Below are positions 1,173 to 64,000 of a stretch of 64,000 nucleotides of DNA, one piece after another (the stretch's first letter is position 1; each line of letters begins with the position of its first letter). The translations under genes were made by a program, and so were the position numbers. The notes under the pieces are model-generated. The model was not told where the DNA came from, did no database searches, and saw only the letters and a list, made by a program, of their open reading frames with translations. The DNA is from Nemertoderma westbladi. Its lineage: Eukaryota; Animalia; Xenacoelomorpha. The DNA lies in assembly GCA_032718475.1 (NCBI GenBank), contig JAUCBJ010000519.1:32556-96555 (forward strand). The letters are read 5' to 3'.

Positions 1173-1311
1173 TGATTCCATATTTTGCCTTCTTGTAAGA
1201 ATCGTCTGGAATGTTTATGAGTTTCTGTAGATTATAAACGCGGAGGTCCGAGTCGTACTTGGAACCAACGACGACAGCGGAAAGGTCGGAGCAGGCGCCC
1301 AGGGAAGACAT
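1173..1311 (-). CDS. WD40-region exon (MSSLGACSDL...DLRVYNL...KYGI)
   Basis: ttttccccgtag acceptor, gtgagt donor, phase 0/1. Confidence 0.8.
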
Positions 1312-4300
1312 CTACGGGGAAAATAAACAGTGAGTTAAATAAAGATATCTGCAGGGAAAATAAACAGGGATTTAGGGAAAATATGTAATAAAAATAAACC
1401 TCCGTTCGCCAATGTTAATACAGTTTACATTTAAATGTTTTCCAATAAAGTTTGTTTTCTATTGTTTATATTTAATCGTTTCTTTAATCCCCTACTTTAT
1501 TTGTTTATATTAATTATTATTAAATTATTATCACGCCATTAGGTTGGAAAAAGTGGAAGTCAATGATAAAAATTTACTAATTCGCATAAAGATCAGGGGC
1601 TAAAATCAGAGTTAAAATTAGTTAAAATAAGTTAAAATTTCAAGTATCAGTTAAAGGTTAGCACAGTGGTGTAGAGGTCGAATTGTCACTTGGCATTGGA
1701 GTAGGTGGTTATAGCTTTGCGTTTATTGTTTATATTATTTGTATATATTGTTTACCTTTGAATGCTTCCCCCCATTGTTTACCAATGTTTACCTTTGAAT
1801 GTTTCCCCCCATTGTTTACCAATGTTTACCTTTGATTGTTTTCCCCTATTGTTTACCAATGTTTACCTTTAATTGTTTTCCCCTATTGTTTACCAATGTT
1901 TACCTTTGAATGTTCCCCCTATTGTTTACCAATGTTTACCTTTAATTGTTTTCCCCTATTGTTTACCAATGTTTACCTTTGAATGTTTCCCCCCTATTGT
2001 TTACCAATGTTTACCTTTGATTGTTTTCCCCTATTGTTTACCAATGTTTACCTTTGATTGTTTTCCCCTATTGGTTACCAATGTTTACCTTTGAATGTTT
2101 CCCCCCTATTGTTTACCAATGTTTACCTTTGATTGTTTTCCCCTATTGTTTACCAATGTTTACCTTTGAATGTTTCCCCCTATTGTTTACCAATGTTTAC
2201 CTTTGAATGTTTCCCCCTATTGTTTACCAATGTTTACCTTTGAATGTTCCCCCCCTATTATTTACCAATGTTTACCTTTAATTGTTCCCCCCCATTGTTT
2301 ACCAATGTTTACCTTTAATTGTTTTCCCCTATTGTTTACCAATGTTTACCTTTGAATGTTTCCCCCTATTGTTTACCAATGTTTACCTTTGATTGTTTTC
2401 CCCTTTTGTTTACAAATGTTTACCTTTGATTGTTTTCCCCTATTGTTTACCAATGTTTACCTTTGAATGTCCTCCCTATTGTTTACCAATGTTTACCTTT
2501 GATTGTTTCCCCCTATTGTTTACCAATGTTTACCTTTGAATGTTTTCCCCTATTGTTTACCAATGTTTACCTTTGATTGTTTTCCCCTATTGTTTACAAA
2601 TGTTTACCTTTGATTGTTTCCCCCTATTGTTTACCAATGTTTACCTTTGAATGTTTTCCCCTATTGTTTACCAATGTTTACCTTTGATTGTTTTCCCCTA
2701 TTGTTTACAAATGTTTACCTTTGAATGTTTCCCCCTATTGTTTACCAATGTTTACCTTTGAATGTTTCCCCCTATTGTTTACCAATGTTTACCTTTGATT
2801 GTTTTCCCCTATTGTTTACCAATGTTTACCTATGAATGTTTTCCCCTATTGTTTACCAATGTTTACCTTTGAATGTATCCTCCCCCCCCCCCCCCCCTAT
2901 TGTTTACCAATGTTTACCTTTGAATGTTTCCCCTATTGTTTACCAATGTTTACCTTTGATTGTTTTCCCCTATTGTTTACCAATGTTTACCTTTGAATGT
3001 TTTCCCCTATTGTTTACCAATGTTTACCTTTGAATGTTTCCCGTATTGTTTACCAATGTCTACCTTTGAATGTTTCCCCTCTATTGTTTACCAATGTTTA
3101 CCTTTGAATGTTTCCCCTCTATTGTTTACCAATGTTGACCTCTAATTGTTTTCCCCTATTGTTTATCAATGTTTACCTTTGAATGTTTCCCCTATTGTTT
3201 ACCAATGTTTACCTTTGAATGTTTCCCCATATGTTTATGATCTTCTGTCTCTAGATTCCACACCGATATTTCGGTGGTGTGACTGACGGATGAGGCTGAC
3301 AGACACATGGCATGGGTACCGGCTCGATTGATGTAAAGTTCAGATAGTAAATCGAAACCACAACCTGGAAAATAATTAGTTTGTAAGATCTTAAAGTTAT
3401 TCATATTTAAGTGATCTATGATCACTAAAATTCATGATAATGTGACGTGCTGTGGCATCTGATGTGGCACTAAATGATCTACGATCACTAACCTTTTAGC
3501 TAATCGACGATCACTGACGTTTTGGCTAATCTACGAGTACTGATATTTTAGCTGATCTACGATCACTGACCTTTCAGCTAATCTACGATCACTGACATTT
3601 TAGCTAATCTACGATCACGTCCCTTTTAGCTAATCTTCGATCACTGACATTTTAGCTGATCTACGATCACTGACCTTTTAGCTAATCTACGATCACTGAC
3701 GTTTTGGCTAATCTACCATTACTGACCTTTTAGCTAATCTACGATCACTGACCTTTTAGCTGATCTACGATCACTGACGTTTTGGTTAATCTGCGATTAC
3801 TGACCTTTAGCTGATCTACAATCACTGACCTATTAGCTGATCTACGATCACTGACCTTTTAGCTAATCTACGATCACTGACATTTTGGCTAATCTACGAT
3901 TACTGATATTTTAGCTGATCTACGATCACTGACCTTTTAGCTAATCTACGATCACTGACGTTTTGGCTAATCTACGATTTCTGATATTTTAGCTGATCTA
4001 CGATCACTGACCTTTCAGCTAATCTACGATCACTGACATTTTAGCTAATCTACGATCACGTCCCTTTTAGCTAATCTTCGATCACTGACATTTTAGCTGA
4101 TCTACGATCACTGACCTTTCAGCTAATCTACGATCACTGACATTTTAGCTAATCTACTATCACGTCCCTTTTAGCTAATCTTCGATCACTGACATTTTAG
4201 CTAATCTACGATCACTGACCTTTTAGCTGATCTACGATCACTGACGTTTTGGCTAATCTGCGATTACTGACCTTTTAGCTGATCTACGATCATGGACCTT

Positions 4301-7300
4301 TTAGCTAATCTTCGATCACTGACCTTTTAGCTGATCTACGATCACTGACCTTTTAGCTAATCTACGATCACTGCCGTTTTGGCTAATCTACCATTACTGA
4401 CCTTTTAGCTAATCTACGATCACTGACCTTTTAGCTGATCTACGATCACTGACGTTTTGGCTAATCTACGATTACTGACCTTTTAGCTGATCTACGATCA
4501 CGGACCTTTTAGATAATCTACGATCACTGACCTTTTAGCTGATCTACGATCACTGACCTTTTAGCTAATCTACGATCACTGACCTTTTAGCTAATCTACG
4601 ATCACTGACGATTTGGCTAATCTACCATTACTGACCTTTTAGCTGATCTACGATCACTGACATTTTAGCTAATCTACGATCACGGACCCTTTAGATAATA
4701 TACGATCACTGACGTTTTGGCTAATCTAAGATTACTGACCTTTTAGCTGATCTACGATCACGGACCTTTTAGATAATCTACGATCACTGACCTTTTAGCT
4801 GATCTACGATCACTGACCTTTTAGCTAATCTACGATCACTGACCTTTTAGCTAATCTACGATCACTGACGATTTGGCTAATCTACCATTACTGACCTTTT
4901 AGCTGATCTACGATCACTGACCTTTTAGCTAATCTACGATCACGGACCCTTTAGATAATCTACGATCACTGACGATTTGGCTAATCTACCATTACTGACA
5001 TTTTAGCTGATCTACGATCACTGACCTTTTAGCCAATCTACGATCACTGACCTTTTAGCTGATCTACGATCACTGACCTTTTAGCTAATCTACGATCACG
5101 GACCCTTTAGATAATCTACAATCACTGACGTTTTGGCTAATCTACGATTACTGACCTCTTAGCTGATCTACGATCACGGACCTTATAGCTAATCGACGAT
5201 CACTGACCTTTTAGCTGATCTACGATCACTGACCTTTTAGCTAATCTACGATCACGGACTCTTTAGATAATCTACGATCACTGACGTTTTGGCTAATCTA
5301 CGATCACGGACCTTCAGCTGATCTACTGACCTTTAGCAGTTCGCAGATGTTTCCCGTTTGTGTTACTAAATATATCGAGGGCAAATATTTCATTGAATCT
5401 CAACAACTGGAACCGACAACCGACAACGTAGTAGTCCCTGGAAACACCGACAGACGAAATGCAGGTTCCCGGTTCCGGACATCTGAGGTCGAACACGAGG
5501 TTCCCTGTCCGGACGTTCCGGACATGGGCGGTGTCCGAACCTCGGAATGCGTGGATTACCTAAAATGTAAGTTAGAATTTCTATGAGTTCTAGCCAAGAA
5601 GGTCACCATGTCCAATATATTTACTCCCAAAGACTGGCGACTTATTTCCAGTGCGGTCCCCCCAGAATCATACTCCCCAGAGGAAACTCCAATAATTCCA
5701 GGAAACTCCACTCATTTAGTTAATTGTGTAAGGCAGATATGCCTTGCACAATGCCTTGGCTAGTCCCTTCAAAGCATTCTTGGCCAGACGGAAACTACCC
5801 CGCCCCCCATGCGGGGACCGAACCCACGACCTCTGGAATGTGAATTTAAGTCAACGGATTTAACCACTACGCCAAGTTGGCACACACCACTGTTCTACGT
5901 TGCACAATTTACCGCGTTCTATAATGTTGTGTCTTTACATTGATACTATTAGGCCTGCCTCTCCCGATTGGCTATAAACTTAGTAATAATTTAGTATTAA
6001 TTATTCTGCACGTATTACATTTCATTTATAATAAACTCATTGTATTTTATTCCCACCTGTTCGTTGTTAGTTGTTGTAGAAACAGCTAAGGAATTATTTC
6101 TGTTAAAACTGCCATATAAGGAGTTAATCTCCGTTATAATTCGTTCACCAATCCACTAAGGTTTCCAGAGCAGCAGAAATACAAGTTTATTGGTTAGTGG
6201 TAAATAAAACGCAATTGAGATGGAAGTTTAAACTATAAATTATTCGATTATGGAGAAACTGCCCAGACATGGTTAGTGACTCAGAATCTAAAGAAGTCTT
6301 AGTCAAATATAATAAACTAACTAAGAGTATATAATATATTTCAAAGTCTGTTGTAAAAAATATAGTTAAAGGAAATAAAATAATGCAAAAAAACTGTCTA
6401 TAATAGGTTTCCTGCATTCAGATTGATATGTCGGCTTATCGACAAAATCGAAACAACTCCCTATCCCCAATAACTTTCGCGAGATCATCTGCATCTTCGA
6501 GGCCAATGTCCTTTAAGAGGCGTCTCAAGAAAGTCATGGGCTGTCCACCATGCAAAACACAACGTAAACCGATTGAGTTTATAATTTAATAGAAATTGAG
6601 ATGCAATGGAAATTAGTAACAAATTATAAACTAAAAACAATAAAAGGTAGTTAACAATAATTAACATTAACTTGACGCGAACGAAACAACAACGCCGAGT
6701 AACTCCCGAAACTCCCGACCTACCAGATCTCCGTGGGACCGGAGACCAGCGATAGTGGCCCGATCCCGATGTAGATTCGGTTTAGTTTTATCCTCCGCCG
6801 ATATCAGCTGAGTCTCCCGGCATTCTGCGAATCCGTTCCCGGCGTTCCACGTCTTCATGACATTGGTTCCATCGAAAAAAGAAACCACATATTGATCTGA
6901 ACGGGAAATCGTTTTAAAAATATAATTCGCTTACATTCAAAGCAGAAAACCCATAAGTAATTTAAGTAAATTTTTTAGATTTTAATGTTTTCAATATTTC
7001 GTGTAATTCGACGGTTTCTTCAGCTGGCAGAAACTTTAGGTTTTCAACCAGAAATTTTTGAATTTTAGGCAAAAAACGAATGTTAAAACCAGAAACTTCA
7101 TTATTTGTGATTATAGTATATCTATGGGATCTATGGGCGAAAACCTACCGACACCACCAAGATCCAGACCCTCCTGACTATATAGACTAACCCTCTGCCC
7201 CGGCGACAACTACAGTGGGTAGATCTATAAAATCGTAAACAACAAAGACCGGAGTGCCGCTGGTGAGATCGTAACCGGTTATGCTGGTCTGCTCGGCCAG

Positions 7301-10300
7301 TATGGCGTACTGGTTGTGGTAGGCGAGTCGTACCATACACGTTGCGGAAGAGATGTCTGTGAGTGTCTGAATGCAGACCCCAGTGCGGATGTTCCAAATC
7401 TAATAGGGGCGAAATTAAAGAGGAATTACTCTAAATCCATGAGTTTGTGTTACAATAAACATAATAATTAGAAAATTCTAAGATTCTTTAGAAGTTCATT
7501 TAATTAAATATATTGAATTTAGTTTTAATTCAGCGTGAAATAACAATGATGGGCCAAGGTGTGCTATATATCACGGCATGAAATAAAGTAACAATATTCT
7601 TTCAGTATTTCACTATCACGCTGAGGTAGGCCCAACGCCAACAGTAAGTGATTCATCACAGATGCTGACAGCACAAGCTACAAAGGTCGTTATCGGTACC
7701 GTGTAGTGAGGGGTAACCGGTATCATTCATTATGTCGCTGCCTACTGAATGAATGAACTGCCTGCAGCCTTTAGTCTGCAGACAGCCCCGGTACCGTACA
7801 ACCTAGTGTACTGTTCTGGTTCCTGTATAATATGTTAATACTGGCTGGCTGGTGTGCAACAACTTATATTTGGCGATTATTTAATTTAGCAATCAATATA
7901 AAATTAAACTCTTTGTTCTATAGAGTAACGTTTATTTGTAAACCATAAACTGATAAAATTTAGATGTATTGTTTATTCTGTATCGGTTACCTTTAACATT
8001 CTGTCTCTAGATGTAGAAGCAACTAATGTCCCATCGGTGCTGACTGTAACGGAAGTTAGGCAGTCTTTGTGGCCAATGAGCGGCTCGTACGTAGCAGAAC
8101 CGGGCTGAGTAAGACAGACATTGGAGGGAATAAGGCATGGCATTGGTGGTTTCATTGCGTCAGCGAATACCTTCGCCAGGATTGGATACTTCTTAGGATC
8201 GCCTAAACCAATAATGTTTCAGTATTACTTCAGTACTTCCACTAAAGTTCGACTATAACCTCTGCAAAAGGCTCGCCCTTTACAAAATCATACTGCTGTA
8301 GGTGTACCGGTATGTGTTTCAATCTATAATCAGCATGTTGCATTACAACTGCATTAAGAATGCTTTCATTGTAGATACTATTTGAGGCAGATTCATCTAC
8401 CCGATACATCGATTTGTCGACAAAATTGCGCCGCCACAACTCCCTATCCCCCATGACTTTCCGAGATTATCCGCACCTTCAAGGTCAGTCTCCTTTAAGA
8501 GGCTTCTCAAGAAAGCCAGATTCGTCAACCTTGCGAATTTGCTGCAAAAACACAAGATTGCGCACAGGCTGGTTCTCATTTCGAAGTCCTGCGAAGCGGA
8601 GGCGGATTTGTTCAAGTCTCAGACTTGGCGGGACTAATGGGACGCCTCCAATATTATATTGTGTTTGGTTGGAGATGTTTTCATTGCACTGCACACAATG
8701 AATCGTTAAGTCCTTAGTAACGAACCAACCTGGGGCGACTGGTACATCCTTAGTAACGAGTCCGTGCAGACGACCCACCAGTTGCGATGGGAACTGCGAG
8801 GGGTCCCCCACCAGAACCGACCGACTCAGTTTCAGCACCTCGTCGAGCAGCTTCAGTTCGGTGTCGGACGAGTCGATATCCAAGGCAGTCTGGAACTCAT
8901 CCAGACAGGACAGGTACCCGAAGGCCAACATCTTAGCCAACACGAAACCGAAGTTAAATAGACAATCCTTCCTGTAACAAGGTAATGATATAAATAAATT
9001 TAGTAATTAAAATATAATAGGAAGTGTAATAAAGTGTCACTTTATTGCACCGCAGCAAAAGTGAGTTTTTCAGGGGGTAGAAGACTAGAAATAGTTGTGC
9101 AGATATAGAGGGAATTCGTGGTGAAAAAATATTAATAAGGAAACCAAGAATTAAATTAATATGTGGGACGAGCCACTAAGTAAGAGAGCTTAGCATACGG
9201 GTAGCGCTGTGGGGCGAGCCACGAAGTAAGGGAGCTTAGTTCCAGCGTCGTTCCAACTGTTATATGTCTGTTGTCTATTGTTTACCACTAGTAACGCAGT
9301 CGGTCTTTGATGAAATTAAACCCAACCTGGTGCACAATGTATACTTTGAAAAGTATGTAACTGAAATTGAGTGTGGAGACTCAGCAGTTCTTCAGTCTGC
9401 CACTAGAGCTCTACATGACCTGGAAACGGTAGAAATAGTTGTAGCCGTGTGCTAAGCTTGCGTACTTGGTACAGCGTGAAGGCCGCGCGAATGAGTTTTA
9501 AACTTTTTCGATTTCGAGTAAAACTCTTTCTCAGATCAAGGAAATATTTTACGTCACGATAATTTCATCCTCTAAGTCAATATTCAATAATATATTAATA
9601 GGAAATAACTAAATCAACAAAATTATTTTCCATCTTTTCAAAATGAAAAGGCCTATGAAATATATTTTTATAAATTTAAATTATGGTTTTAACACCCAGA
9701 CAAACCGGAGTTACATTTTAAGTTGTTACTAAAATTACACTGAAATTAATGAAACAGGATATAATAAAAAACAGACGACAATTAATATGAAACAGAATGA
9801 ATCAGCTGGCTGCTGTCAGCTGATCACTGATTGCATGCAACGTCTAGGTTCTGTTGCTTTTTAGTTTTTTACATACTTTGGTATTAACACACCTACCGGT
9901 AAGGTTTTTTACATAACGTGCTTGATAAATAAATATATATAATTATTAATTACAATTTATTGGGGATAATTAATTAACCCTCCTGGGGGTGAGTGCGTCC
10001 ATAGCAACCCACCTTAGTGCGTCCATAGCAACCCACCTTAGTGCGTCCATAGCGACCCACCTGAGTGCGTCCATAGCGACCCACCTGAGTGCGTCCATAG
10101 CGACCCACCTGAGTGCGTCCATAGCAACCCACCTGAGTGCGTCCATAGCGACCCACCTGAGTGCGTCCATAGCAACCCACCTGAGTGCGTCCATAGCGAC
10201 CCACCTGAGTGCGTCCATAGCGACCCACCTGAGTGCGTCCATAGCAACCCACCTGAGTGCGTCCATAGCGACCCACCTGAGTGCGTCCATAGCGACACAC

Positions 10301-13300
10301 CTGAGTGCGTCCATAGCAACCCACCTTAGTGCGTCCATAGCGACCCACCTGAGTGCGTCCATAGCAACCCACCTGAGTGCGTCCATAGCAACCCACCTTA
10401 GTGCGTCCATAGCGACCCACCTGAGTGCGTCCATAGCGACCCACCTGAGTGCGTCCATAGCGACCCACCTGAGTGCGTCCATAGCGACCCACCTGAGTGC
10501 GTCCATAGCAACCCACCTGAGTGCGTCCATAGCAACCCACCTGAGTGCGTCCATAGCGACCCACCTGACTGCGTCCATAGCAACCCACCTGAGTGCGTCC
10601 ATAGCGACCCACCTGAGTGCGTCCATAGCGACCCACCTGAGTGCGTCCATAGCGACCCACCTGAGTGCGTCCATAGCGACCCACCTGAGTGCGTCCATAG
10701 CGACCCACCTGAGTGCGTCCATAGCGACCCACCTGAGTGCGTCCATAGCGACCCACCTGAGTGCGTCCATAGCGACCCACCTGAGTGCGTCCATAGCAAC
10801 CCACCTTAGTGCGTCCATAGCGACCCACCTGAGTGCGTCCATAGCGACCCACCTGAGTGCGTCCATAGCGACCCACCTGAGTGCGTCCATAGCGACCCAC
10901 CTGATGGCGTCCATGGCGACCCACCTGAGTGCGTCCATAGCAACCCACCTGAGTGCGTCCATAACGACCCACCTGAGTGCGTCCATAGCGACCCACCTGA
11001 GTGCGTCTATAGCGACCCACCTGAGTGCGTCCATGGCGACCCACCTGAGTGCGTCCATAGCAACCCACCTGAGTGCGTCCATAGCGACCCACCTGAGTGC
11101 GTCCATAGCGACCCACCTGAGTGCGTCCATAGCGACCCACCTGAGTGCGTCCATAGCGACCCACCTGAGTGCGTCCATAGCGACCCACCTGAGTGCGTCC
11201 ATAGCAACCCACCTTAGTGCGTCCATAGCGACCCACCTGAGTGCGTCCATAGCGACCCACCTGTGTGCGTCCATAGCGACCCACCTGAGTGCGTCCATAG
11301 CAACCCACCTTAGTGCGTCCATAGCGACCCACCTGAGTGCGTCCATAGCGACCCACCTGAGTGCGTCCATAGCGACCCACCTGAGTGCGTCCATAGCGAC
11401 CCACCTGAGTGCGTCCATAGCGACCCACCTGAGTGCGTCCATAGCGACCCACCTGAGTGCGTCCATAGCGACCCACCTGAGTGCGTCCATAGCAACCCAC
11501 CTTAGTGCGTCCATAGCGACCCACCTGAGTGCGTCCATAGCGACCCACCTGAGTGCGTCCATAGCGACCCACCTGAGTGCGTCCATAGCGACCCACCTGA
11601 TGGCGTCCATGGCGACCCACCTGAGTGCGTCCATAGCAACCCACCTGAGTGCGTCCATAACGACCCACCTGAGTGCGTCCATAGCGACCCACCTGAGTGC
11701 GTCTATAGCGACCCACCTGAGTGCGTCCATGGCGACCCACCTGAGTGCGTCCATAGCAACCCACCTGAGTGCGTCCATAGCGACCCACCTGAGTGCGTCC
11801 ATAGCGACCCACCTGAGTGCGTCCATAGCGACCCACCTGAGTGCGTCCATAGCGACCCACCTGAGTGCGTCCATAGCGACCCACCTGAGTGCGTCCATAG
11901 CAACCCACCTTAGTGCGTCCATAGCGACCCACCTGAGTGCGTCCATAGCGACCCACCTGTGTGCGTCCATAGCGACCCACCTGAGTGCGTCCATAGCAAC
12001 CCACCTTAGTGCGTCCATAGCGACCCACCTGAGTGCGTCCATAGCGACCCACCTGAGTGCGTCCATAGCGACCCACCTGAGTGCGTCCATAGCGACCCAC
12101 CTGAGTGCGTCCATAGCAACCCACCTGAGTGCGTCCATAGCGACCCACCTGAGTGCGTCCATAGCAACCCACCTGAGTGCGTCCATAGCGACCCACCTGA
12201 GTGCGTCCATAGCAACCCACTTTAGTGGTCCATAGCAACCCACCTGAGTGCGTCCATAGCAACCCACCTTAGTGCGTCCATAGCAACCCACCTTAGTGCG
12301 TCCATAGCGACCCACCTGAGTGCGTCCATAGCATTAGCGTTAATTAAATGGTGCGACATTTCCTGTAGTTTACGAAGATTCAGACGACCCCCGTCTATGT
12401 AGGTCGGTTGCTTAGTAACCAAGGCGAATCTAGGTTCGGGGACATCTTCTCCGGACCCCCCGGGGGTGTTCGTGAGTTTCCGACCCAGGAAATATTCCGA
12501 GACTATTGTGTGGTAACTGGGGGCCTTGTCCCGGTTCTCTAAGTATCTGTGAGATAGTGAAAAACCGGGTTACAGACGAGCTGAATCTAACCAAAACAAT
12601 AAACGGCTGTCAACTAAGCGCTCGAAACAATAAAATCAAGATAATAATTACACATTAACTTAAAATAAAATGACTAATTACTGTCTACCAAATAGTGACA
12701 ACGTGTTAATCTTTACATGGGAAAAAAAGGCCAACATACTGAAGTACTGAGGCAGAAATGATTGTTGTGAAAAAATTGTATTGAATCTTGGGTTTATAAC
12801 TCGTTACTCTTGGATAGTAAAATTCCAAAAATTTTTATAATTAAAATTATTGAATTAAAATAACTAAATAAATAACTGATTAGGTTGAGGGTATAAATTG
12901 TATTACATTACGTACAATACAAACGATATACTGTAGCTGCTACAGAGGAAGAAACTAACCTATCAGAAGCGGCTTCTCGAACTGTCCTGTTGTTCCATTG
13001 GATAGTGTAACCGTCACCCACGCGGTAGTCCAATATATAGGGCTCAAGTTGAACCCTCAACCTCAACCAATTAGCTACGGGGAACCTCGAAACCCTACCC
13101 ACGCTAGAACCAATAGCAACCTCGTCCATACAGGCCTTGTCCATCGTGAGTAAGTCTACAAGTTCTGGGGTTGATACTCCGGCCTGATTGGCTGATATGT
13201 AACCTAGAGTCCGTCTCACTGTGGCCTCGCCGAATTCCATTTCTAACCGCTGGAATACGGATTGGATCATCTTGTTACCGTTAGATGGCGCTAGGTTCCC

Positions 13301-46300: not shown

Positions 46301-46922
46301 GTTTTGGGATTGTCTCAGCAAGATTAGTTGCGACAGTACTAAAATAGTCATTAAATCCATTTGCAATTTTACTTTTGTTATCAGTTATGGAACCATCAAT
46401 AAAAAATTTTGTGGAAAGAGAGTTTGTTTTTTTATTTATTACTTCCTTGATTACTGACCATGTTTTGCTAATATTGAACTTATATTTATCGAAAAGCTTA
46501 GAGAAATATTGTTGTTTGGCGATTCGGATAGTCTTAGTTAGTATGTTTTTATAAACTATGTACTCGTGTTTCTTTTTATCAGTGCGATTTTTTAAATAAT
46601 TTGAATAAAGTTTATGCTTCATCCGAATGGACTGATACATATTTTCAGAAATCCAGGGCTTTTCATTATTAATTATCTTAATCTTTTTCAATGGGAAGCT
46701 GTCATTATATAAACTCTGGTAAATTCCCATAAATGTAACCAATGATTCATTTGGATCATTTTTTGAAGTTACTTGATCCCAGCATTGGGTTTTCTGCAAT
46801 TTATCCCAAAAAACTGCTTTATTTTTGTTTGACTTATCACGGCTTGTGGGGCGAGCCACGAAGTTGGCGGAGCCTTAGCGAATTGACACTGTTAGGGGGT
46901 GGGTCAATTTATGCAAATAGTT

Positions 46923-46973
<51 letters not shown>

Positions 46974-53075: not shown

Positions 53076-56000
53076 CTGTGGGGTAGAAAGAGTAAATATC
53101 AGTGGGAGTGATGTTAGTTGTGATGTTAGTGGGAGCGGTCTGTGGGTAGAAAGAGTAGATGTTAGTGGGAGCGGTCTGTGGTAGAAAGAGTAGATGTTAG
53201 TGGGTGCGGTCTGTGGTAGAAAGAGTAGATGTTAGTGGGAGCGGTCTGTGGGTAGAAAGAGTAGATGTTAGTGGGTGTGGTCTGTGGTAGAAAGAGTAGA
53301 TGTTAGTGGGAGCGGTCTGTGGTAGAAAGAGTAGATGTTAGTGGGAGCGGTCTGTGGTAGAAAGAGTAGATGTTAGTGGGAGCGGTCTGTGGGTAGAAAG
53401 AGTAGATGTTAGTGGGTGTGGTCTGTGGTAGAAAGAGTAGATGTTAGTGGGAGCGGTCTGTGGTAGAAAGAGTAGATGTTAGTGGGAGCGGTCTGTGGGT
53501 AGAAAGAGTAGATGTTAGTGGGTGTGGTCTGTGGTAGAAAGAGTAGATGTTAGTGGGAGCGGTCTGTGGTAGAAAGAGTAGATGTTAGTGGGTGTGGTCT
53601 GTGGTAGAAAGAGTAGATGTTAGTGGGAGCGGTCTGTGGTAGAAAGAGTAGATGTTAGTGGGAGCGGTCTGTGGGTAGAAAGAGTAGATGTTAGTGGGTG
53701 TGGTCTGTGGTAGAAAGAGTAGATGTTAGTGGGAGCGGTCTGTGGCAGAAAGAGTAGATGTTAGTGGGAGCGGTCTGTGGATAGAACAAGTAGATATTAG
53801 TGGGTAGAAAGAGTAGATGTTACCGGAAGCGGTCTGTGGGTAGAAAGAGTAGATGTTAGGGGGAGCGGTCTGTGGGTAGAAAGAGTAGATATCAGTGGGA
53901 ACAGTCTGTGGGTAGAAATAGTAGATGTTAGTGGGATTGGTCTGTGGGTAGAAAGAGTAGATCTTAATGGGAGCGGTCCGTGGGGTAGAAAGAGTAGATG
54001 TTAGCGGGAGCGGTCTGTGGGTAGAAAGAGTAGATGTTAGTGGATGCGGTCTGTGGGTAGAAAGAGTAGATGTTAATGGGAGCGGTCTGTGGGTAGAAAG
54101 AGTAGATATCAGTGCGAGCAGTCTGTGGGTAGAAAGAGTAGATGTTAGCAGGTAGAAAGAGTAGATTTTTAGTGGGTAGAAAGAGCAGATGTTAGTGGGT
54201 AGAAAGAGTAGATGTTAGCGGGAGCGGTCTGTGTGGTACATAGAGTAGATAAGTTAGCGGAGCGGTCTGTGTGGTAGAAAGAGTAGATGTTAGCGGGAGC
54301 GGTCTGTGTGGTAGAAAGAGCAGATGTTAGCGGGTAGAAAGAGTAGATGTTACCGGGAGCGGTCTGTGGGTAGAAAGAGTAGATGTTAGTGGGAGCGGTC
54401 TGTGGGGTAGAAAGAGTAGATGTTAGTGGGAGCGGTCTGTGGGTAGAAAGAGTAGATGTTAGCAGGTAGAAAGAGTAGATTTTTAGTGGGTAGAAAGAGC
54501 AGATGTTAGTGGGTAGAAAGAGTAGATGTTAGCGGGAGCGGTCTGTGTGGTACATAGAGTAGATAAGTTAGCGGAGCGGTCTGTGTGGTAGAAAGAGTAG
54601 ATGTTAGCGGGAGCGGTCTGTGGGGTAGAAAGAGTAGATATCAGTGGGAGCGGTCTGTGGGTAGAAAGAGTAGATGTTAGTGGGAGCGGTCTGTGTGGTA
54701 GAAAGAGTAGATGTTAGCGGGAGCGGTCTGTGGGGTAGAAAGAGTAGATATCAGTGGGAGCGGTCTGTGGGGTAGAAAGAGTAGATGTAGCGGGAGCGGT
54801 CTGTGGGGTAGAAAGAGTAGATGTTAGCGGGAGCGGTCTGTGGGTAGAAATAGTAGATGTAGCGGGAGCGGTCTATGGGTAGAAAGAGTAGATGTAGCGG
54901 GAGCGGTCTGTGGGGTAGAAAGAGTAGATGTTAGCGGGAGCGGTCTGTGGGTAGAAATAGTAGATGTAGCGGGAGCGGTCTATGGGTAGAAAGAGTAGAT
55001 GTTAGCGGGAGCGGTCTGTGGGTAGAAAGAGTAGATGTTACCGGGAGCGGTCTGTGGGGTAGAAAGAGTAGATGTTAGCGGGAGCGGTCTGTGGGTAGAA
55101 ATAGTAGATGTTAGCGGGAGCGGTCTGTGGGTAGAAAGAGTAGATGTTAGTGGGTGCGGTCTGTGGGTAGAAATAGTAGATGTAGCGGGAGCGGTCCGTG
55201 GGTAGAAAGAGTAGATGTAGCGGAAGCGGTCTGTGGGTAGAAAGAGTAGATGTTACCGGGAGCGGTCTGTGGGGTAGAAAGAGTAGATGTAGCGGGAGCG
55301 GTCTATGGGTAGAAAGAGTAGATGTTAGCGGGAGCGGTCTGTGGGTAGAAAGAGTAGATGTTAGTGGGTGCGGTCTGTGGGTAGAAATAGTAGATGTTAG
55401 CGGGAGCGGTCTGTGGGTAGAAATAGTAGATGTAGCGGGAGCGGTCTATGGGTAGAAAGAGTAGATGTTAGCGGGAGCGGTCTGTGGGTAGAAAGAGTAG
55501 ATGTTAGTGGGAGCGGTCTGTGGGTAGAAAGAGTAGATGTTAGTGGGTGCGGTCTGTGGGTAGAAATAGTAGATGTAGCGGGAGCGGTCCGTGGGTAGAA
55601 AGAGTAGATGTTAGTGGGTGCGGTCTGTGGGTAGAAATAGTAGATGTAGCGGGAGCGGTCCGTGGGTAGAAAGAGTAGATGTAGCGGAAGCGGTCTGTGG
55701 GTAGACAGAGTAGATGTAGCAGGAGCGGTCTGTGGGTAGAAATAGTAGATGTAGCGGGAGCGGTCTATGGGTAGAAAGAGTAGATGTTAGCGGGAGCGGT
55801 CTGTGGGTAGAAAGAGTAGATGTTAGTGGGTGCGGTCTGTGGGTAGAAATAGTAGATGTAGCGGGAGCGGTCCGTGGGTAGAAAGAGTAGATGTAGCAGG
55901 AGCGGTCTGTGGGTAGAAAGAGTAGATGTTAGTGGGTGCGGTCTGTGGGTAGAAAGAGTAGATGTTAGTGGGTGCGGTCTGTGGGTAGAAATAGTAGATG

Positions 56001-59000
56001 TTAGCGGGAGCGGTCTGTGGGTAGAAATAGTAGATGTAGCGGGAGCGGTCTATGGGTAGAAAGAGTAGATGTTAGCGGGAGCGGTCTGTGGGTAGAAAGA
56101 GTAGATGTTAGTGGGTGCGGTCTGTGGGTAGAAATAGTAGATGTAGCGGGAGCGGTCCGTGGGTAGAAAGAGTAGATGTAGCGGAAGCGGTCTGTGGGTA
56201 GACAGAGTAGATGTAGCAGGAGCGGTCTGTGGGTAGAAATAGTAGATGTAGCGGGAGCGGTCTATGGGTAGAAAGAGTAGATGTTAGCGGGAGCGGTCTG
56301 TGGGTAGAAAGAGTAGATGTTAGTGGGTGCGGTCTGTGGGTAGAAATAGTAGATGTAGCGGGAGCGGTCCGTGGGTAGAAAGAGTAGATGTAGCAGGAGC
56401 GGTCTGTGGGTAGAAAGAGTAGATGTTACCGGGAGCGGTCTGTGGGGTAGAAAGAGTAGATGTTAGCGGGAGCGGTCTGTGGGTAGAAATAGTAGATGTA
56501 GCGGGAGCGGTCTATGGGTAGAAAGAGTAGATGTTAGCGGGAGCGGTCTGTGGGTAGAAAGAGTAGATGTTAGTGGGTGCGGTCTGTGGGTAGAAATAGT
56601 AGATGTAGCGGGAGCGGTCCGTGGGTAGAAAGAGTAGATGTAGCGGAAGCGGTCTGTGGGTAGACAGAGTAGATGTAGCAGGAGCGGTCTGTGGGTAGAA
56701 AGAGTAGATGTTAGTGGGAGCGGTCTGTGGGTAGAAATAGTAGATGTAGCGGGAGCGGTCTATGGGTAGAAAGAGTAGATGTTAGCGGGAGCGGTCTGTG
56801 GGTAGAAAGAGTAGATGTTAGTGGGTGCGGTCTGTGGGGTAGAAAGAGTAGATGTTAGCGGGAGCGGTCTGTGGGTAGAAATAGTAGATGTTAGCGGGAG
56901 CGGTCTGTGGGGTAGAAAGAGTAGATGTTAGTGGGTGCGGTCTGTGGGTAGAAATAGTAGATGTAGCGGGAGCGGTCCGTGGGTAGAAAGAGTAGATGTA
57001 GCGGAAGCGGTCTGTGGGTAGAAAGAGTAGATGTTAGCGGGAGCGGTCTGTGGGTAGAAAGAGTAGATGTTACCGGGAGCGGTCTGTGGGGTAGAAAGAG
57101 TAGATGTAGCGGGAGCGGTCTATGGGTAGAAAGAGTAGATGTTAGCGGGAGCGGTCTGTGGGTAGAAAGAGTAGATGTTAGTGGGTGCGGTCTGTGGGTA
57201 GAAATAGTAGATGTTAGCGGGAGCGGTCTGTGGGTAGAAAGAGTAGATGTTACCGGGAGCGGTCTGTGGGGTAGAAAGAGTAGATGTTAGTGGGAGCGGT
57301 CTATGGGTAGAAAGAGTAGATGTTAGCGGGAGCGGTCTGTGGGTAGAAAGAGTAGATGTTAGTGGGTGCGGTCTGTGGGTAGAAATAGTAGATGTAGCGG
57401 GAGCGGTCCGTGGGTAGAAAGAGTAGATGTAGCGGAAGCGGTCTGTGGGTAGACAGAGTAGATGTAGCAGGAGCGGTCTGTGGGTAGAAATAGTAGATGT
57501 AGCGGGAGCGGTCTATGGGTAGAAAGAGTAGATGTTAGCGGGAGCGGTCTGTGGGTAGAAAGAGTAGATGTTAGTGGGTGCGGTCTGTGGGTAGAAATAG
57601 TAGATGTAGCGGGAGCGGTCCGTGGGTAGAAAGAGTAGATGTAGCAGGAGCGGTCTGTGGGTAGAAAGAGTAGATGTTAGTGGGTGCGGTCTGTGGGTAG
57701 AAAGAGTAGATGTTAGTGGGTGCGGTCTGTGGGTAGAAATAGTAGATGTTAGCGGGAGCGGTCTGTGGGTAGAAATAGTAGATGTAGCGGGAGCGGTCTA
57801 TGGGTAGAAAGAGTAGATGTTAGCGGGAGCGGTCTGTGGGTAGAAAGAGTAGATGTTAGTGGGTGCGGTCTGTGGGTAGAAATAGTAGATGTAGCGGGAG
57901 CGGTCCGTGGGTAGAAAGAGTAGATGTAGCGGAAGCGGTCTGTGGGTAGACAGAGTAGATGTAGCAGGAGCGGTCTGTGGGTAGAAATAGTAGATGTAGC
58001 GGGAGCGGTCTATGGGTAGAAAGAGTAGATGTTAGCGGGAGCGGTCTGTGGGTAGAAAGAGTAGATGTTAGTGGGTGCGGTCTGTGGGTAGAAATAGTAG
58101 ATGTAGCGGGAGCGGTCCGTGGGTAGAAAGAGTAGATGTAGCAGGAGCGGTCTGTGGGTAGAAAGAGTAGATGTTACCGGGAGCGGTCTGTGGGGTAGAA
58201 AGAGTAGATGTTAGCGGGAGCGGTCTGTGGGTAGAAATAGTAGATGTAGCGGGAGCGGTCTATGGGTAGAAAGAGTAGATGTTAGCGGGAGCGGTCTGTG
58301 GGTAGAAAGAGTAGATGTTAGTGGGTGCGGTCTGTGGGTAGAAATAGTAGATGTAGCGGGAGCGGTCCGTGGGTAGAAAGAGTAGATGTAGCGGAAGCGG
58401 TCTGTGGGTAGACAGAGTAGATGTAGCAGGAGCGGTCTGTGGGTAGAAAGAGTAGATGTTAGTGGGAGCGGTCTGTGGGTAGAAATAGTAGATGTAGCGG
58501 GAGCGGTCTATGGGTAGAAAGAGTAGATGTTAGCGGGAGCGGTCTGTGGGTAGAAAGAGTAGATGTTAGTGGGTGCGGTCTGTGGGTAGAAATAGTAGAT
58601 GTAGCGGGAGCGGTCCGTGGGTAGAAAGAGTAGATGTAGCGGAAGCGGTCTGTGGGTAGACAGAGTAGATGTAGCAGGAGCGGTCTGTGGGTAGAAAGAG
58701 TAGATGTTACCGGGAGCGGTCTGTGGGGTAGAACGAATGGATGTTAGTGGGAGCGGTCTGTGGGTAGAAAGAGTAGATGTTAGCGGGAGCGGTCTGTGGG
58801 TAGAAAGAGTAGATGTTAGTGGGTGCGGTCTGTGGGGTAGAAAGAGTAGATGTAGCGGAAGCGGTCTGTGGGTAGAAAGAGTAGATGTTAGTGGGTGCGG
58901 TCTGTGGGGTAGAACGAATGGATGTTAGTGGGAGCGGTCTGTGGGTAGAAAGAGTAGATGTTAGCGGGAGCGGTCTGTGGGTAGAAAGAGTAGATGTTAG

Positions 59001-62000
59001 TGGGTGCGGTCTGTGGGGTAGAACGAATGGATGTTAGTGGGAGCGGTCTGTGGGTAGAAAGAGTAGATGTTACCGGGAGCGGTCTGTGGGGTAGAAAGAG
59101 TAGATGTTAGCGGGAGCGGTCTGTAGGTAGAAAGAGTAGATATGTTAGCGGGAGCGGTCTGTGGGTAGAAAGAGTAGATGTTAGTGGGTAGAAAGAGTAG
59201 ATGTTAGTGGGAGCGGTTTGTGGGTAGAAAGAGTAGATGTTAGTGGGTGCGGTCTGTGGGTAGAAATAGTAGATGTAGCGGGAGCGGTCCGTGGGTAGAA
59301 AGAGTAGATGTAGCGGAAGCGGTCTGTGGGTAGACAGAGTAGATGTAGCAGGAGCGGTCTGTGGGTAGAAAGAGTAGATGTTAGCGGGAGCGGTCTGTGG
59401 GTAGAAAGAGTAGATGTTAGTGGGAGCGGTCTGTAGGTAGAAAGAGTAGATGTAGCGGGAGCGGTCTGTGGGTAGAAAGAGTAGATGTTAGTGGGTGCGG
59501 TCTGTGGGTAGAAAGAGTAGATGTTAGCGGGAGCGGTCTGTGGGTAGAAAGAGTAGATGTTAGTGGGTGCGGTCTGTGGGTAGAAAGAGTAGATGTTAGC
59601 GGGAGCGGTCTGTGGGTAGAAAGAGTAGATGTTAGTGGGAGCGGTCTGTAGGTAGAAAGAGTAGATGTAGCGGGAGCGGTCTGTGGGTAGAAAGAGTAGA
59701 TATCAGTGGGAGCGGTCTGTGGGTAGAAAGAGTAGATATCAGTGGGAGCGGTCTGTGGGGTAGAACGAATGGATGTTAGTGGGAGCGGTCTGTGGGTAGA
59801 AAGAGTAGATGTTAGCGGGAGCGGTCTGTGGGGTAGAACGAATGGATGTTACCGGGAGCGGTCTGTGGGTAGAAAGAGTAGATGTTAGCGGGAGCGGTCT
59901 GTGGGTAGAAAGAGTAGATGTTAGTGGGAGCGGTCTGTGGGGTAGAAAGAGTAGATGTAGCGGGAGCGGTCTATGGGTAGAAAGAGTAGATGTTACCGGG
60001 AGCGGTCTGTGGGGTAGAAAGAGTAGATGTTACTGGGAGCGGTCTGTGGGGTAGAACGAATGGATGTTACCGGGAGCGGTATGTGGGTACAAAGAGTAGA
60101 TGTTAGCAGGTAGAAAGAGTAGATGTTAGTGGGAGCGGTCTGTGGGGTAGAACGAATGGATGTTACCGGGAGCGGTCTGTGGGTAGAAAGAGTAGATGTT
60201 AGTGGGAGCGGTCTGTGGGGTAGAACGAATGGATGTTACCGGGAGCGGTCTGTGGGGTAGAACGAATGGATGTTACCGGGAGCGGTCTATGGGTAGAAAG
60301 AGTAGATGTTACCGGGAGCGGTCTGTGGGGTAGAACGAATGGATGTTACCGGGAGCGGTCTATGGGTAGAAAGAGTAGATGTTAGCGGGAGCGGTCTGTG
60401 GGTAGAAAGAGTAGATGTTAGTGGGAGCGGTCTGTGGGGTAGAAAGAGTAGATGTTACCGGGAGCGGTCTGTGGGGTAGAACGAATGGATGTTACCGGGA
60501 GCGGTATGTGGGTAGAAAGAGTAGATGTTAGCGGGAGCGGTCTGTGGGGTAGAACGAATGGATGTTACCGGGAGCGGTCTATGGGTAGAAAGAGTAGATG
60601 TTAGCGGGAGCGGTCTGTGGGTAGAAAGAGTAGATGTTAGTGGGAGCGGTCTGTGGGGTAGAACGAATGGATGTTACCGGGAGCGGTCTATGGGTAGAAA
60701 GAGTAGATGTTAGCGGGAGCGGTCTGTGGGTAGAAAGAGTAGATGTTAGTGGGAGCGGTCTGTGGGGTAGAAAGAGTAGATGTTACCGGGAGCGGTCTGT
60801 GGGGTAGAAAGAGTAGATGTTAGCGGGAGCGGTCTATGGGTAGAAAGAGTAGATGTTACCGGGAGCGGTCTGTGGGTAGAAAGAGTAGATGTTAGCGGGA
60901 GCGGTCTGTGGGTAGAAAGAGTAGATGTTACCGGGAGCGGTCTGTGGGGTAGAAAGAGTAGATGTTAGCGGGAGCGGTCTATGGGTAGAAAGAGTAGATG
61001 TTACCGGGAGCGGTCTGTGGGTAGAAAGAGTAGATGTTAGCGGGAGCGGTCTGTGGGTAGAAAGAGTAGATGTTAGTGGGAGCGGTCTGTGGGGTAGAAA
61101 GAGTAGATGTTACCGGGAGCGGTCTGTGGGTAGAAAGAGTAGATGTTAGCAGGTAGAAAGAGTAGATGTTAGTGGGAGCGGTCTGTAGGTAGAAAGAGTA
61201 GATGTTACCGGGAGCGGTCTGTGGGGTAGAAAGAGTAGATGTTAGTGGGAGCGGTCTGTGGGGTAGAAAGAGTAGATGTTACCGGGAGCGGTCTGTGGGG
61301 TAGAACGAATGGATGTTACCGGGAGCGGTCTGTGGGTAGAAAGAGTAGATGTTAGTGGGAGCGGTCTGTGGGGTAGAAAGAGTAGATGTTACCGGGAGCG
61401 GTCTGTGGGGTAGAAAGAGTAGATGTTAGCGGGAGCGGTCTATGGGTAGAAAGAGTAGATGTTACCGGGAGCGGTCTGTGGGGTAGAAAGAGTAGATGTT
61501 AGTGGGAGCGGTCTGTGGGGTAGAACGAATGGATGTTACCGGGAGCGGTCTGTGGGGTAGAAAGAGTAGATGTTACCGGGAGCGGTCTGTGGGGTAGAAA
61601 GAGTAGATGTTAGCGGGAGCGGTCTATGGGTAGAAAGAGTAGATGTTACCGGGAGCGGTCTGTGGGGTAGAAAGAGTAGATGTTAGTGGGAGCGGTCTGT
61701 GGGGTAGAACGAATGGATGTTACCGGGAGCGGTCTGTGGGTAGAAAGAGTAGATGTTAGTGGGAGCGGTCTGTGGGGTAGAAAGAGTAGATGTTACCGGG
61801 AGCGGTCTGTGGGGTAGAAAGAGTAGATGTTAGCGGGAGCGGTCTATGGGTAGAAAGAGTAGATGTTACCGGGAGCGGTCTGTGGGGTAGAAAGAGTAGA
61901 TGTTAGTGGGAGCGGTCTGTGGGTAGAAAGAGTAGATGTTAGCGGGAGCGGTCTGTGGGTAGAAAGAGTAGATGTTAGCGGGAGCGGTCTGTGGGGTAGA

Positions 62001-64000
62001 ACGAATGGATGTTACCGGGAGCGGTATGTGGGTACAAAGAGTAGATGTTAGTGGGAGCGGTCTGTGGGGTAGAACGAATGGATGTTACCGGGAGCGGTAT
62101 GTGGGTACAAAGAGTAGATGTTAGCAGGTAGAAAGAGTAGATGTTAGTGGGTGCGGTCTGTGGGTAGAAATAGTAGATGTAGCGGGAGCGGTCTGTGGGT
62201 AGAAAGAGTAGATGTTAGCGGGAGCGGTCTGTGGGTAGAAAGAGTAGATGTTACCGGGAGCGGTCTGTGGGGTAGAACGAATGGATGTTACCGGGAGCGG
62301 TCCGTGGGTAGAAAGAGTAGATGTAGCGGAAGCGGTCTGTGGGTAGAAAGAGTAGATGTTAGTGGGAGCGGTCTGTGGGGTAGAAAGAGTAGATGTTACC
62401 GGGAGCGGTCTGTGGGGTAGAAAGAGTAGATGTTAGTGGGAGCGGTCTGTGGGGTAGAAAGAGTAGATGTAGCGGGAGCGGTCTATGGGTAGAAAGAGTA
62501 GATGTTAGCGGGAGCGGTCTGTGGGTAGAAAGAGTAGATGTTAGTGGGTGCGGTCTGTGGGTAGAAAGAGTAGATGTTACCGGGAGCGGTCTGTGGGGTA
62601 GAAAGAGTAGATGTTAGTGGGAGCGGTCTGTGGGTAGAAAGAGTAGATGTTAGTGGGAGCGGTCTGTGGGGTAGAAAGAGTAGATGTTACCGGGAGCGGT
62701 CTGTGGGGTAGAAAGAGTAGATGTTAGTGGGAGCGGTCTGTGGGGTAGAAAGAGTAGATGTAGCGGGAGCGGTCTATGGGTAGAAAGAGTAGATGTTAGC
62801 GGGAGCGGTCTGTGGGTAGAAAGAGTAGATGTTAGTGGGTGCGGTCTGTGGGTAGAAAGAGTAGATGTTACCGGGAGCGGTCTGTGGGGTAGAAAGAGTA
62901 GATGTTAGCGGGAGCGGTCTATGGGTAGAAAGAGTAGATGTTACCGGGAGCGGTCTGTGGGGTAGAAAGAGTAGATGTTAGCGGGAGCGGTCTATGGGTA
63001 GAAAGAGTAGATGTTAGTGGGAGCGGTCTGTGGGTAGAAAGAGTAGATGTTAGCGGGAGCGGTCTGTGGGTAGAAAGAGTAGATGTTAGTGGGAGCGGTC
63101 TGTGGGTAGAAAGAGTAGATGTTAGCGGGAGCGGTCTGTGGGTAGAAAGAGTAGATGTTAGTGGGAGCGGTCTGTGGGGTAGAAAGAGTAGATGTAGCGG
63201 GAGCGGTCTATGGGTAGAAAGAGTAGATGTTAGCGGGAGCGGTCTGTGGGTAGAAAGAGTAGATGTTAGTGGGTGCGGTCTGTGGGTAGAAAGAGTAGAT
63301 GTTACCGGGAGCGGTCTGTGGGGTAGAAAGAGTAGATGTTAGCGGGAGCGGTCTATGGGTAGAAAGAGTAGATGTTACCGGGAGCGGTCTGTGGGGTAGA
63401 AAGAGTAGATGTTAGCGGGAGCGGTCTATGGGTAGAAAGAGTAGATGTTACCGGGAGCGGTCTGTGGGGTAGAAAGAGTAGATGTTAGCGGGAGCGGTCT
63501 ATGGGTAGAAAGAGTAGATGTTAGCGGGAGCGGTCTATGGGTAGAAAGAGTAGATGTTAGCGGGAGCGGTCTGTGGGTAGAAAGAGTAGATGTTAGTGGG
63601 TGCGGTCTGTGGGTAGAAATAGTAGATGTAGCGGGAGCGGTCCGTGGGTAGAAAGAGTAGATGTAGCGGAAGCGGTCTGTGGGTAGACAGAGTAGATGTA
63701 GCAGGAGCGGTCTGTGGGTAGAAAGAGTAGATGTTAGTGGGTGCGGTCTGTGGGGTAGAACGAATGGATGTTAGTGGGAGCGGTCTGTGGGTAGAAAGAG
63801 TAGATGTTAGCGGGAGCGGTCTGTGGGTAGAAAGAGTAGATGTTAGTGGGTGCGGTCTGTGGGGTAGAAAGAGTAGATGTAGCGGAAGCGGTCTGTGGGT
63901 AGAAAGAGTAGATGTTAGTGGGTGCGGTCTGTGGGGTAGAACGAATGGATGTTAGTGGGAGCGGTCTGTGGGTAGAAAGAGTAGATGTTAGCGGGAGCGG
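53046..64000. repeat. 35-37-bp minisatellite (about 300 copies in window, runs off the end) containing the acceptor of exon 52836-53075
   Basis: Minus-strand unit ctttctacccacag|ACCGCTCCCGCTAACATCTACT. Confidence 0.98.

Follow-up and report, generated by a model that had tools for sequence, protein, structure and literature searches.

Mirage-like minisatellites at ten predicted splice junctions of a NACHT-WD40 gene in Nemertoderma westbladi

Minisatellites whose units span an exon–intron boundary are known from lancelets as mirages. In lancelet globin genes, tandem duplications occur at both 5′ and 3′ intron boundaries, with normal splicing and length differences and with a mechanism called unclear; the cases include the globins BflGb6 and BflGb9, the Adh3 units measure 10–72 bp, and sizes reach 160 bp (PMC3087553). 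Mirages are also present in PGBD5, which has two such repeats, and in troponin C (PMC3902484), and they leave splicing undisturbed (PMC3087553, PMC3902484). Donor-spanning human counterparts, described as variable-number tandem repeats (VNTRs), lie in F7 intron 7 (37 bp), CBS intron 13, IFI6 (6-16), LMNB2 and PDGF; in F7 the most upstream donor alone is used (PMC1557585). A third related process is the gain of introns by tandem duplication, proposed in the Rogers model (cited in PMC3087553) and published, with a junction-crossing duplication, for a potato gene that encodes RNA-dependent RNA polymerase (RdRp) (PMC4974935). The present text concerns a 64,000-nucleotide stretch of the Nemertoderma westbladi genome (contig JAUCBJ010000519.1, positions 32,556–96,555 of the forward strand; hereafter the window), in which ten junctions of one predicted NACHT-WD40 gene carry tandem repeats of this kind. 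A first-pass annotation of the window knew of no description of the pattern as gene-wide; it belongs to the class of the lancelet mirages (PMC3087553, PMC3902484), which has human donor versions (PMC1557585).

Tandem repeats at ten junctions of one gene

Seven large arrays lie on junctions of a gene modelled on the minus strand (Table 1), and the unit of each is composed of an exon end, its splice signal and the neighbouring intron. Together they account for 22,277 intronic bases, or 35% of the window. The first-pass annotation had reported all seven arrays at these positions, and each falls on a junction of the 22-exon model described below, which was built from six-frame translation and the sequence independently of that annotation's junctions. 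At junction 3213 the period is 37 bp, not the 38 bp that it gave (28 of 39 spacings). A scan of all 44 junctions adds three unexpanded dimers absent from the earlier list, at 39639, 29468 and 1311. The ten repeated junctions comprise five donors and five acceptors, with periods of 24–44 bp and from 2 to approximately 300 copies. In exon 14 (13378–13396) and exon 11 (16090–16114) the acceptor is likewise crossed by 10-bp repeats, which are too short to be told from chance and were excluded from the counts.

Table 1 Features of the window. Positions are those of the 64,000-nucleotide stretch; junctions are named by position.
Feature	Position	Strand	Details
NWD1/2-like NACHT-WD40 gene (predicted)	1189..53075	-	22 exons of 55–427 nt, total 4311 nt; both ends incomplete
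36-bp acceptor array (period 35/36), before exon 1, junction 53075	53046..64000	-	~300 units; continues past window edge
39–41-bp array at acceptor of exon 7, junction 38896	38884..39342	-	~11 units; 13 exon nt each
44-bp array at donor of exon 8, junction 36705	31917..36738	-	~108 units; 30–34 exon nt each
40/44-bp array at acceptor of exon 12, junction 15392	15380..15893	-	~12 units; occupies nearly whole 527-nt intron
24-bp array at donor of exon 15, junction 12316	9990..12332	-	~97 units; 17 exon + 7 intron nt
26-bp array at donor of exon 20, junction 5331	3477..5337	-	~71 units; ~7 exon nt; all but ~116 nt of intron
37-bp array at donor of exon 21, junction 3213	1749..3237	-	~40 units; 20–25 exon nt
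31-bp acceptor dimer, exon 6, junction 39639	39637..39694	-	exact copy of 24 intron + 3 exon nt; marginal as spanning
31-bp dimer at donor of exon 9, junction 29468	29433..29502	-	25 exon + 6 intron nt
Decayed 37-bp acceptor dimer, exon 22, junction 1311	1305..1374	-	26 intron + 7 exon nt
Off-junction array	16231..16851
Off-junction array	18682..18991
Off-junction array	19882..20544
Off-junction array	21457..22545
Off-junction array	40840..40941
Off-junction array	46923..47988
LINE-like element pieces, intron 1	44681..51723	- (gene strand)	interrupted by 315-bp array
tRNA-Trp(CCA) gene	37750..37823	+	within intron 7

The dimer at 39639 recurs in short-read contigs, in one that is identical to the window and possibly its source (X1) and in two from sample S2 (X2 and X3), which differ from it by 3 and 5 other letters and one 1-base gap and have no 31-base deletion. 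X4 yielded no contig over 39575–39995, which is no evidence that the dimer is absent there. Both samples covering this dimer, the only one so compared, hold two copies. In S2 the first base of exon 6 differs and the intronic copy is the same, which would fit a substitution made afterwards or else, on the window haplotype, a conversion of one copy by the other.

Two further observations concern the arrays' surroundings. At 15899–15952, the last part of exon 11 appears again, over 15 nt, starting 6 nt into intron 11 and resembling the remnant of a donor duplication; together with the 15392 array this makes intron 11 nearly all junction-derived, 26 nt remaining after masking. The far end of the 24-bp array (9975–9990) breaks off within the exon-derived part of a unit, beside a TTAA-CCCT motif. 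The motif presumably recalls a piggyBac-type end.

Host gene and placement of its junctions

Joining the 22 exons modelled between 53075 and 1189 gives a single open frame of 1437 amino acids, with 80 and 77 stops in the two other frames. All 22 acceptors are AG, and the donors are GT in 21 cases and GC in one. The donor hexamers are atypical: of 22, six are GTTAGT, four GTTGGT and just two GTAAGT.

Twelve exon pieces were searched one by one against Pfam. Exon 14 matches HTH_NWD1 (PF25469; E=3.6e-8, 33.8 bits against a cut-off of 27), placing the winged helix characteristic of NWD1/2-like proteins above the Pfam cut-off. Single-exon matches to WD40 (E=4.5e-5, 24.3 bits against 27) and NACHT (E=0.074, 13.3 bits against 26.7) fall below theirs. 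Full-length blastp of the predicted product reached E=0 with the lophotrochozoan proteins of Lingula, Owenia, Capitella and Lottia (about 31% identity), and the best full-length relatives align at 30–32% over approximately 1430 amino acids; eight of these relatives come from Ridgeia, Lingula, Owenia, Capitella, Rhinoraja, Lottia, Plakobranchus and Haliotis, and the Capitella, Plakobranchus and Haliotis proteins are annotated as NWD1/2-like. This alignment to named NWD-like proteins supports the assignment as a putative NWD1/2-like NACHT-WD40 gene and would fit a NACHT domain with WD40 propellers after it. The predicted product has HTH_NWD1 and full-length similarity in common with NWD1/NWD2-like proteins and differs in being only about 31% identical to its best full-length match, with both ends lying outside the model. 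Word-based protein searches gave no match. A full HMMER search of 1.84 billion proteins with exon 16 returned 59 relatives; the best was 59% identical over 81 amino acids, and none reached an E value of 1e-30. The organism thus seems to lack a close relative among these proteins, which speaks against a lancelet. Two metagenome loci (L001 and L002) with 34-residue matches at 53% were not accepted as orthologs.

All junctions are gene-model predictions from reading frame and homology, and their anchoring was assessed by counting the homolog high-scoring segment pairs (HSPs) that span each one, scored as gapped if they held a gap of at least 4 residues near the junction. No gapped HSP occurs at intron 8 (junction 36705, 0/16), intron 11 (15392, 0/19), intron 15 (12316, 0/47), intron 20 (5331, 0/24) or intron 21 (3213, 0/22), and these five array junctions are well placed because homolog alignments cross them ungapped. 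At intron 9, which bears the 29468 dimer, 1 of 17 is gapped, and at introns 5 and 6 four of ten are gapped in each. Junction 38896 is poorly anchored, lying in a variable region where its predicted placement comes from the reading frame. The least secure of the seven is the putative junction 53075, which has no homology anchor and whose upstream exon would lie beyond the window; its basis is a pyrimidine tract followed by CAG, with coding-like sequence (third-position GC of 0.70 in the first 60 nt) and no start codon.

Junction repeats exceed chance within the gene

A gapped self-match score of at least 32 is reached at 10 of the 44 junctions, compared with 16 of 1500 intron positions drawn at random and 6 of the 751 GT/AG sites that served as decoys. 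Because these position controls omit array interiors, which inflates the contrast, a count of events is the fairer test. The 57 repeat loci were reduced to 14 complex arrays with a period of at least 20, a score of at least 90 and an entropy of at least 1.7; eight of these span a junction where 0.87 would be expected (P=1e-7), and the count becomes 8 of 16 once two AT-rich arrays are included (P=2e-7). Seven of the 12 large arrays lie on junctions against an expectation of 0.72 (P=3.2e-7), or 6 of 11 without 53075 (P=4.7e-6), and the five longest are among the seven (P=0.027 for that, given seven of 12), which bears out the first-pass count and places it beyond chance in the window. When only the 100 nt beside junctions are considered, removing the effect of transposon-inflated introns, 8 of 9 arrays span the junction against 2.1 expected (P=6e-5); the claim that duplications on junctions far exceed those in nearby intron DNA thus stands for this gene. 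The dimers show the same tendency: of the 37 junctions free of arrays, 3 have one, compared with 19 of the 2451 positions scanned, which fall into two loci (p=0.004), and with 1 of 237 positions lying 40–200 nt inside the same introns. The junction excess is real within the gene, and the sole null that absorbs it is one in which introns measured 60–80 nt at seeding.

Copy variation and choice of splice site

Splice dinucleotides are retained in approximately 89–100% of units: GT in 39/39 at 3213, 65/72 at 5331, 97/97 at 12316 and 103/107 at 36705, and AG in 12/12 at 15392, 10/11 at 38896 and 271/305 at 53075. Exact copies of the real 9-nt donor number 36 of 39, 82 of 96 and 93 of 107 extra copies, the last at 36705. 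The dinucleotide columns are conserved no better than the remaining columns of the unit, and for that reason the decoys look neutral. The five long arrays each hold between 13 and 61 unit types, with a mean divergence from consensus of mostly 2–13%; in the 24-bp array, units at a lag of 29 are of the same type in 63% of cases, compared with 32% expected. With regard to the mirage trait of concerted evolution within a cluster that spares its border units, end units are the most divergent at 15392, 5331 and 53075, and the profile is flat at 36705 and 3213. Such unit variants and block duplications are the pattern of ordinary minisatellites. A long coding repeat was considered for the 36-bp array and rejected, its longest stop-free run being 173 codons with 82–101 stops per frame.

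The first-pass gene model used the copy nearest the exon in every array. No alternative copy keeps the frame at 38896, 36705, 15392 or 3213. Reading on past the real donor at 5331 meets a stop in frame, as judged from the sequence itself, the frame chain there covering two copies. The exon-proximal copy is, in the predicted gene model, the only frame-keeping site at these five of the seven arrays and is likely to be the one spliced. At 12316 that exclusiveness fails, as the first three extra copies keep the frame and would add 8, 16 or 24 residues. In ten of the units at 15380–15893, a donor-like site lies 12 nt after the AG, defining potential in-frame micro-exons of four residues that match the start of exon 12; upstream copies carry a synonymous variant of that exon's first codon.

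Origin of the junction repeats

The account that we prefer, with moderate confidence, is that the ten junctions of this gene carry mirage minisatellites that began as break-repair seeds at exon edges, survived there and grew by ordinary minisatellite expansion. In the seeding step, short local duplications would arise in excess at exon edges; the units are local and head-to-tail, the junction excess includes dimers, and no 16-mer is common to any of the seven units and window DNA outside its own array. Duplications lying wholly within exons would be purged by selection, and those straddling the edge would remain. Because survival alone yields no excess over intron DNA, either seeding was biased or the introns were tiny. 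Survival would follow from the proximal splice site next to the exon remaining complete: the intron part of the units is at least 6 nt in every donor case and approximately 18–30 nt in acceptors, and therefore the exon-proximal site stays whole. Unequal exchange or slippage would then multiply the units and give rise to common variants and block duplications. Splicing is predicted to pick the exon-proximal site, as in human F7, with most other choices hitting a stop or a frameshift.

The cause of seeding may be recombinational or end-joining repair started in, or anchored by, the exon, a suggestion that we put a little short of probable. Support for break repair is indirect and comes by analogy with human meiotic break repair, which yields side-by-side duplications with 1–10 bp of microhomology (PMC7615360), and from direct repeats of 6–9 nt, each with a 1-nt gap, on either side of what would have been the single copy at 36705 and at 3213.

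Several results weigh against this account or narrow it. The excess tests cover one gene, selected for showing the pattern. Of the 43 loci excluded from the count as short or of low complexity, just 2 reach a junction, which limits the excess to complex units. An ungapped test for microhomology gave an overlap of zero or less at eight of ten loci, the other two being truncated or off the window, and within exons none of 600 positions reached a duplication score of at least 24. At the one place where haplotypes were compared, 6 of 421 letters differ, and therefore the introns there are not strongly heterologous. Human CBS and 6-16 also splice at their nearest pseudo-sites, so strict use of a single site would not be guaranteed, least of all at 12316 (PMC1557585). 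Finally, the significance of the excess depends on intron length at seeding, with P=0.16 for an assumed 60 nt and P=0.036 for 80 nt.

The last point carries the most viable alternative, which we think unlikely: that nothing targets junctions, repeats being born at random in a repeat-prone genome whose introns were short at seeding or have been overwritten since, with an extreme gene picked for study. Introns of 60 nt would predict 6.1 of 9 junction matches, and two array-bearing introns do collapse to 26 and 116 nt. Against this, the array-free introns measure 174–10,351 nt after repeat collapse, while the low divergence from consensus in the five long arrays marks the arrays as young; an assumed 100 nt already gives P=0.01, and the range of 100–200 nt gives P=0.01 to 1e-4. 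The dimers, moreover, are equally in excess.

A splicing-coupled lesion is somewhat less likely still. Polymerase pausing or spliceosome assembly would expose or break germline DNA and leave duplications of 24–44 nt on the splice site. The tightness of the dimer signal around junctions, the equal numbers of donors and acceptors and the units' stopping 3–18 nt beyond the junction in all ten cases (judged by eye and post hoc; the 53075 unit also parses with 30 exon nt) would suit such a lesion, as would the failure of exon GC and length to predict which junctions are duplicated. Exon length was tried as a predictor and had no effect, and GC content at the exon edge is 0.46 at duplicated and 0.44 at other junctions (p=0.73), which lends no support to the GC step that the first-pass annotation had listed among its candidate causes; the consensuses of four of the seven units have a GC content of 0.32–0.36, like intron DNA (0.37). 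A G-rich RNA strand is not common to the arrays, however, the RNA-strand GC skew running from -0.68 in the largest array to +0.39, which argues against the lesion and against the R-loop breaks suggested earlier, though a splicing-coupled lesion that needs no G-skew may still apply; the intron-heavy acceptor units, moreover, are explicable by selection alone. Equally doubtful is the wider proposal that in this lineage junctions themselves are germline hotspots of tandem duplication, with a rate approximately 10–20 times that of introns and a splicing-linked lesion as the cause; their copies would expand, replace intron sequence, as in intron 11, and supply micro-exons and new introns genome-wide.

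Selection of the arrays as splicing regulators, acting as decoy sinks, as sources of 8-residue in-frame extensions (12316) or 12-nt micro-exons (15392), or in stepwise splicing, is very unlikely. The high retention of GT and AG, the in-frame copies 1–3 of the 24-bp array and the ten paired AG and donor-like sites of the 15392 array would be expected of regulators; against them stand dinucleotides kept no better than other columns, unit sequences that are unrelated, copy numbers from 2 to approximately 300 and homologs with no insertion at 12316 (0/47) or 15392 (0/19).

Less credible again is the birth of the introns themselves from arrays, by exonic duplication carrying a proto-splice site, or the copying of units from RNA by the reverse transcriptase (RT) of a long interspersed nuclear element (LINE), the latter being one of the candidates that the first-pass annotation listed, as RNA-templated repair. 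RT and endonuclease frames do lie in intron 1, and intron gain by duplication across a junction has precedent. Comparison of the intron part of each unit with the other flanking exon, however, gave from 1/8 to 8/24 matching letters at nine loci (best 7/14); Rogers-type introns were rejected on this failure at 9 of 9 loci, and RNA templating leaves no sign, units matching the neighbouring exon at 0 of 9. Each array touches one junction, with no exon–exon copy and no dispersed copies in the window, and a retro-derived or transposon-borne repeat was set aside on the same absence of exon–exon sequence and of any 16-mer outside the arrays. An assembly or sequencing artefact is hardly credible at all, for although the short-read comparison covers the 39639 dimer and not the seven large arrays, these have recurring variants, block structure and decayed ends, and the dimer is found in contigs from two samples.

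Other features of the window

Six arrays lie off the junctions. The 64-bp unit of one has 16-mers in common with 9207–9227 and 46845–46864, and because of this recurrence it appears to come from a dispersed repeat; repeats of 21 bp and 102 bp lie within a 388-codon frame that has no Pfam match. The LINE-like pieces in intron 1 include an RT frame at 45444–46874 (RVT_1, E=3e-26) and an endonuclease frame at 48442–49491 (E=7.5e-11).

Comparison with known systems

On structural features, the predicted arrays and dimers belong to the known mirage class. Units span the exon–intron boundary in seven arrays, five of them anchored by homologs, and in three dimers; the AG or GT is repeated in nearly all units; and both boundary types are represented, by five donors and five acceptors, with units of 24–44 bp inside the mirage range of approximately 10–160 bp. 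The paper that named mirages, Canestro et al. 2002, reportedly found most Adh minisatellites to be mirages, a gene-wide pattern already. The Nemertoderma gene adds density, high copy numbers and a local excess that holds up under most controls; the repeat class itself is known. A literature search, with subscription papers mostly outside its reach, found no genome-wide enrichment test of junction-spanning repeats, and PMC10078293 had no bearing on units of this kind.

At present the locus amounts to a known class of repeat, densely represented in a single gene that was selected for it. Its repeats range from dimers, decayed or perfect, up to an array of 300 copies and, with the local excess, frame the question of whether junctions are hotspots of duplication or merely places where duplications are survivable. 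The gene would also be a powerful natural setting in which to see how one acceptor is picked from up to approximately 270 near-identical AG sites, the human work cited here covering donors only.

Intron gain by tandem duplication involves the same local duplication with splice signals, and the components required by the model in which new introns derive from mirages are present in the 15392 unit; the Nemertoderma arrays differ in sitting inside introns, each at one junction, with no new intron seen. The human VNTRs have the same first unit over the boundary, followed by identical pseudo-donors, and the same unit sizes. They are single loci of 5–25 copies, at donors only, where site use was tested, whereas the Nemertoderma sites are predicted from sequence. 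The lancelet mirages are closest, with the same boundary-spanning units, both boundary types, duplicated AG or GT, the same size range and more than one repeat per gene. The accessible accounts of lancelet mirages report no measure of excess over random placement, in contrast to the excess measured in the Nemertoderma gene, and the lancelet globin and PGBD5 mirages have 2–7 copies, whereas the Nemertoderma gene carries repeats at ten junctions, with up to approximately 300 copies and 35% of the window taken up by its arrays.

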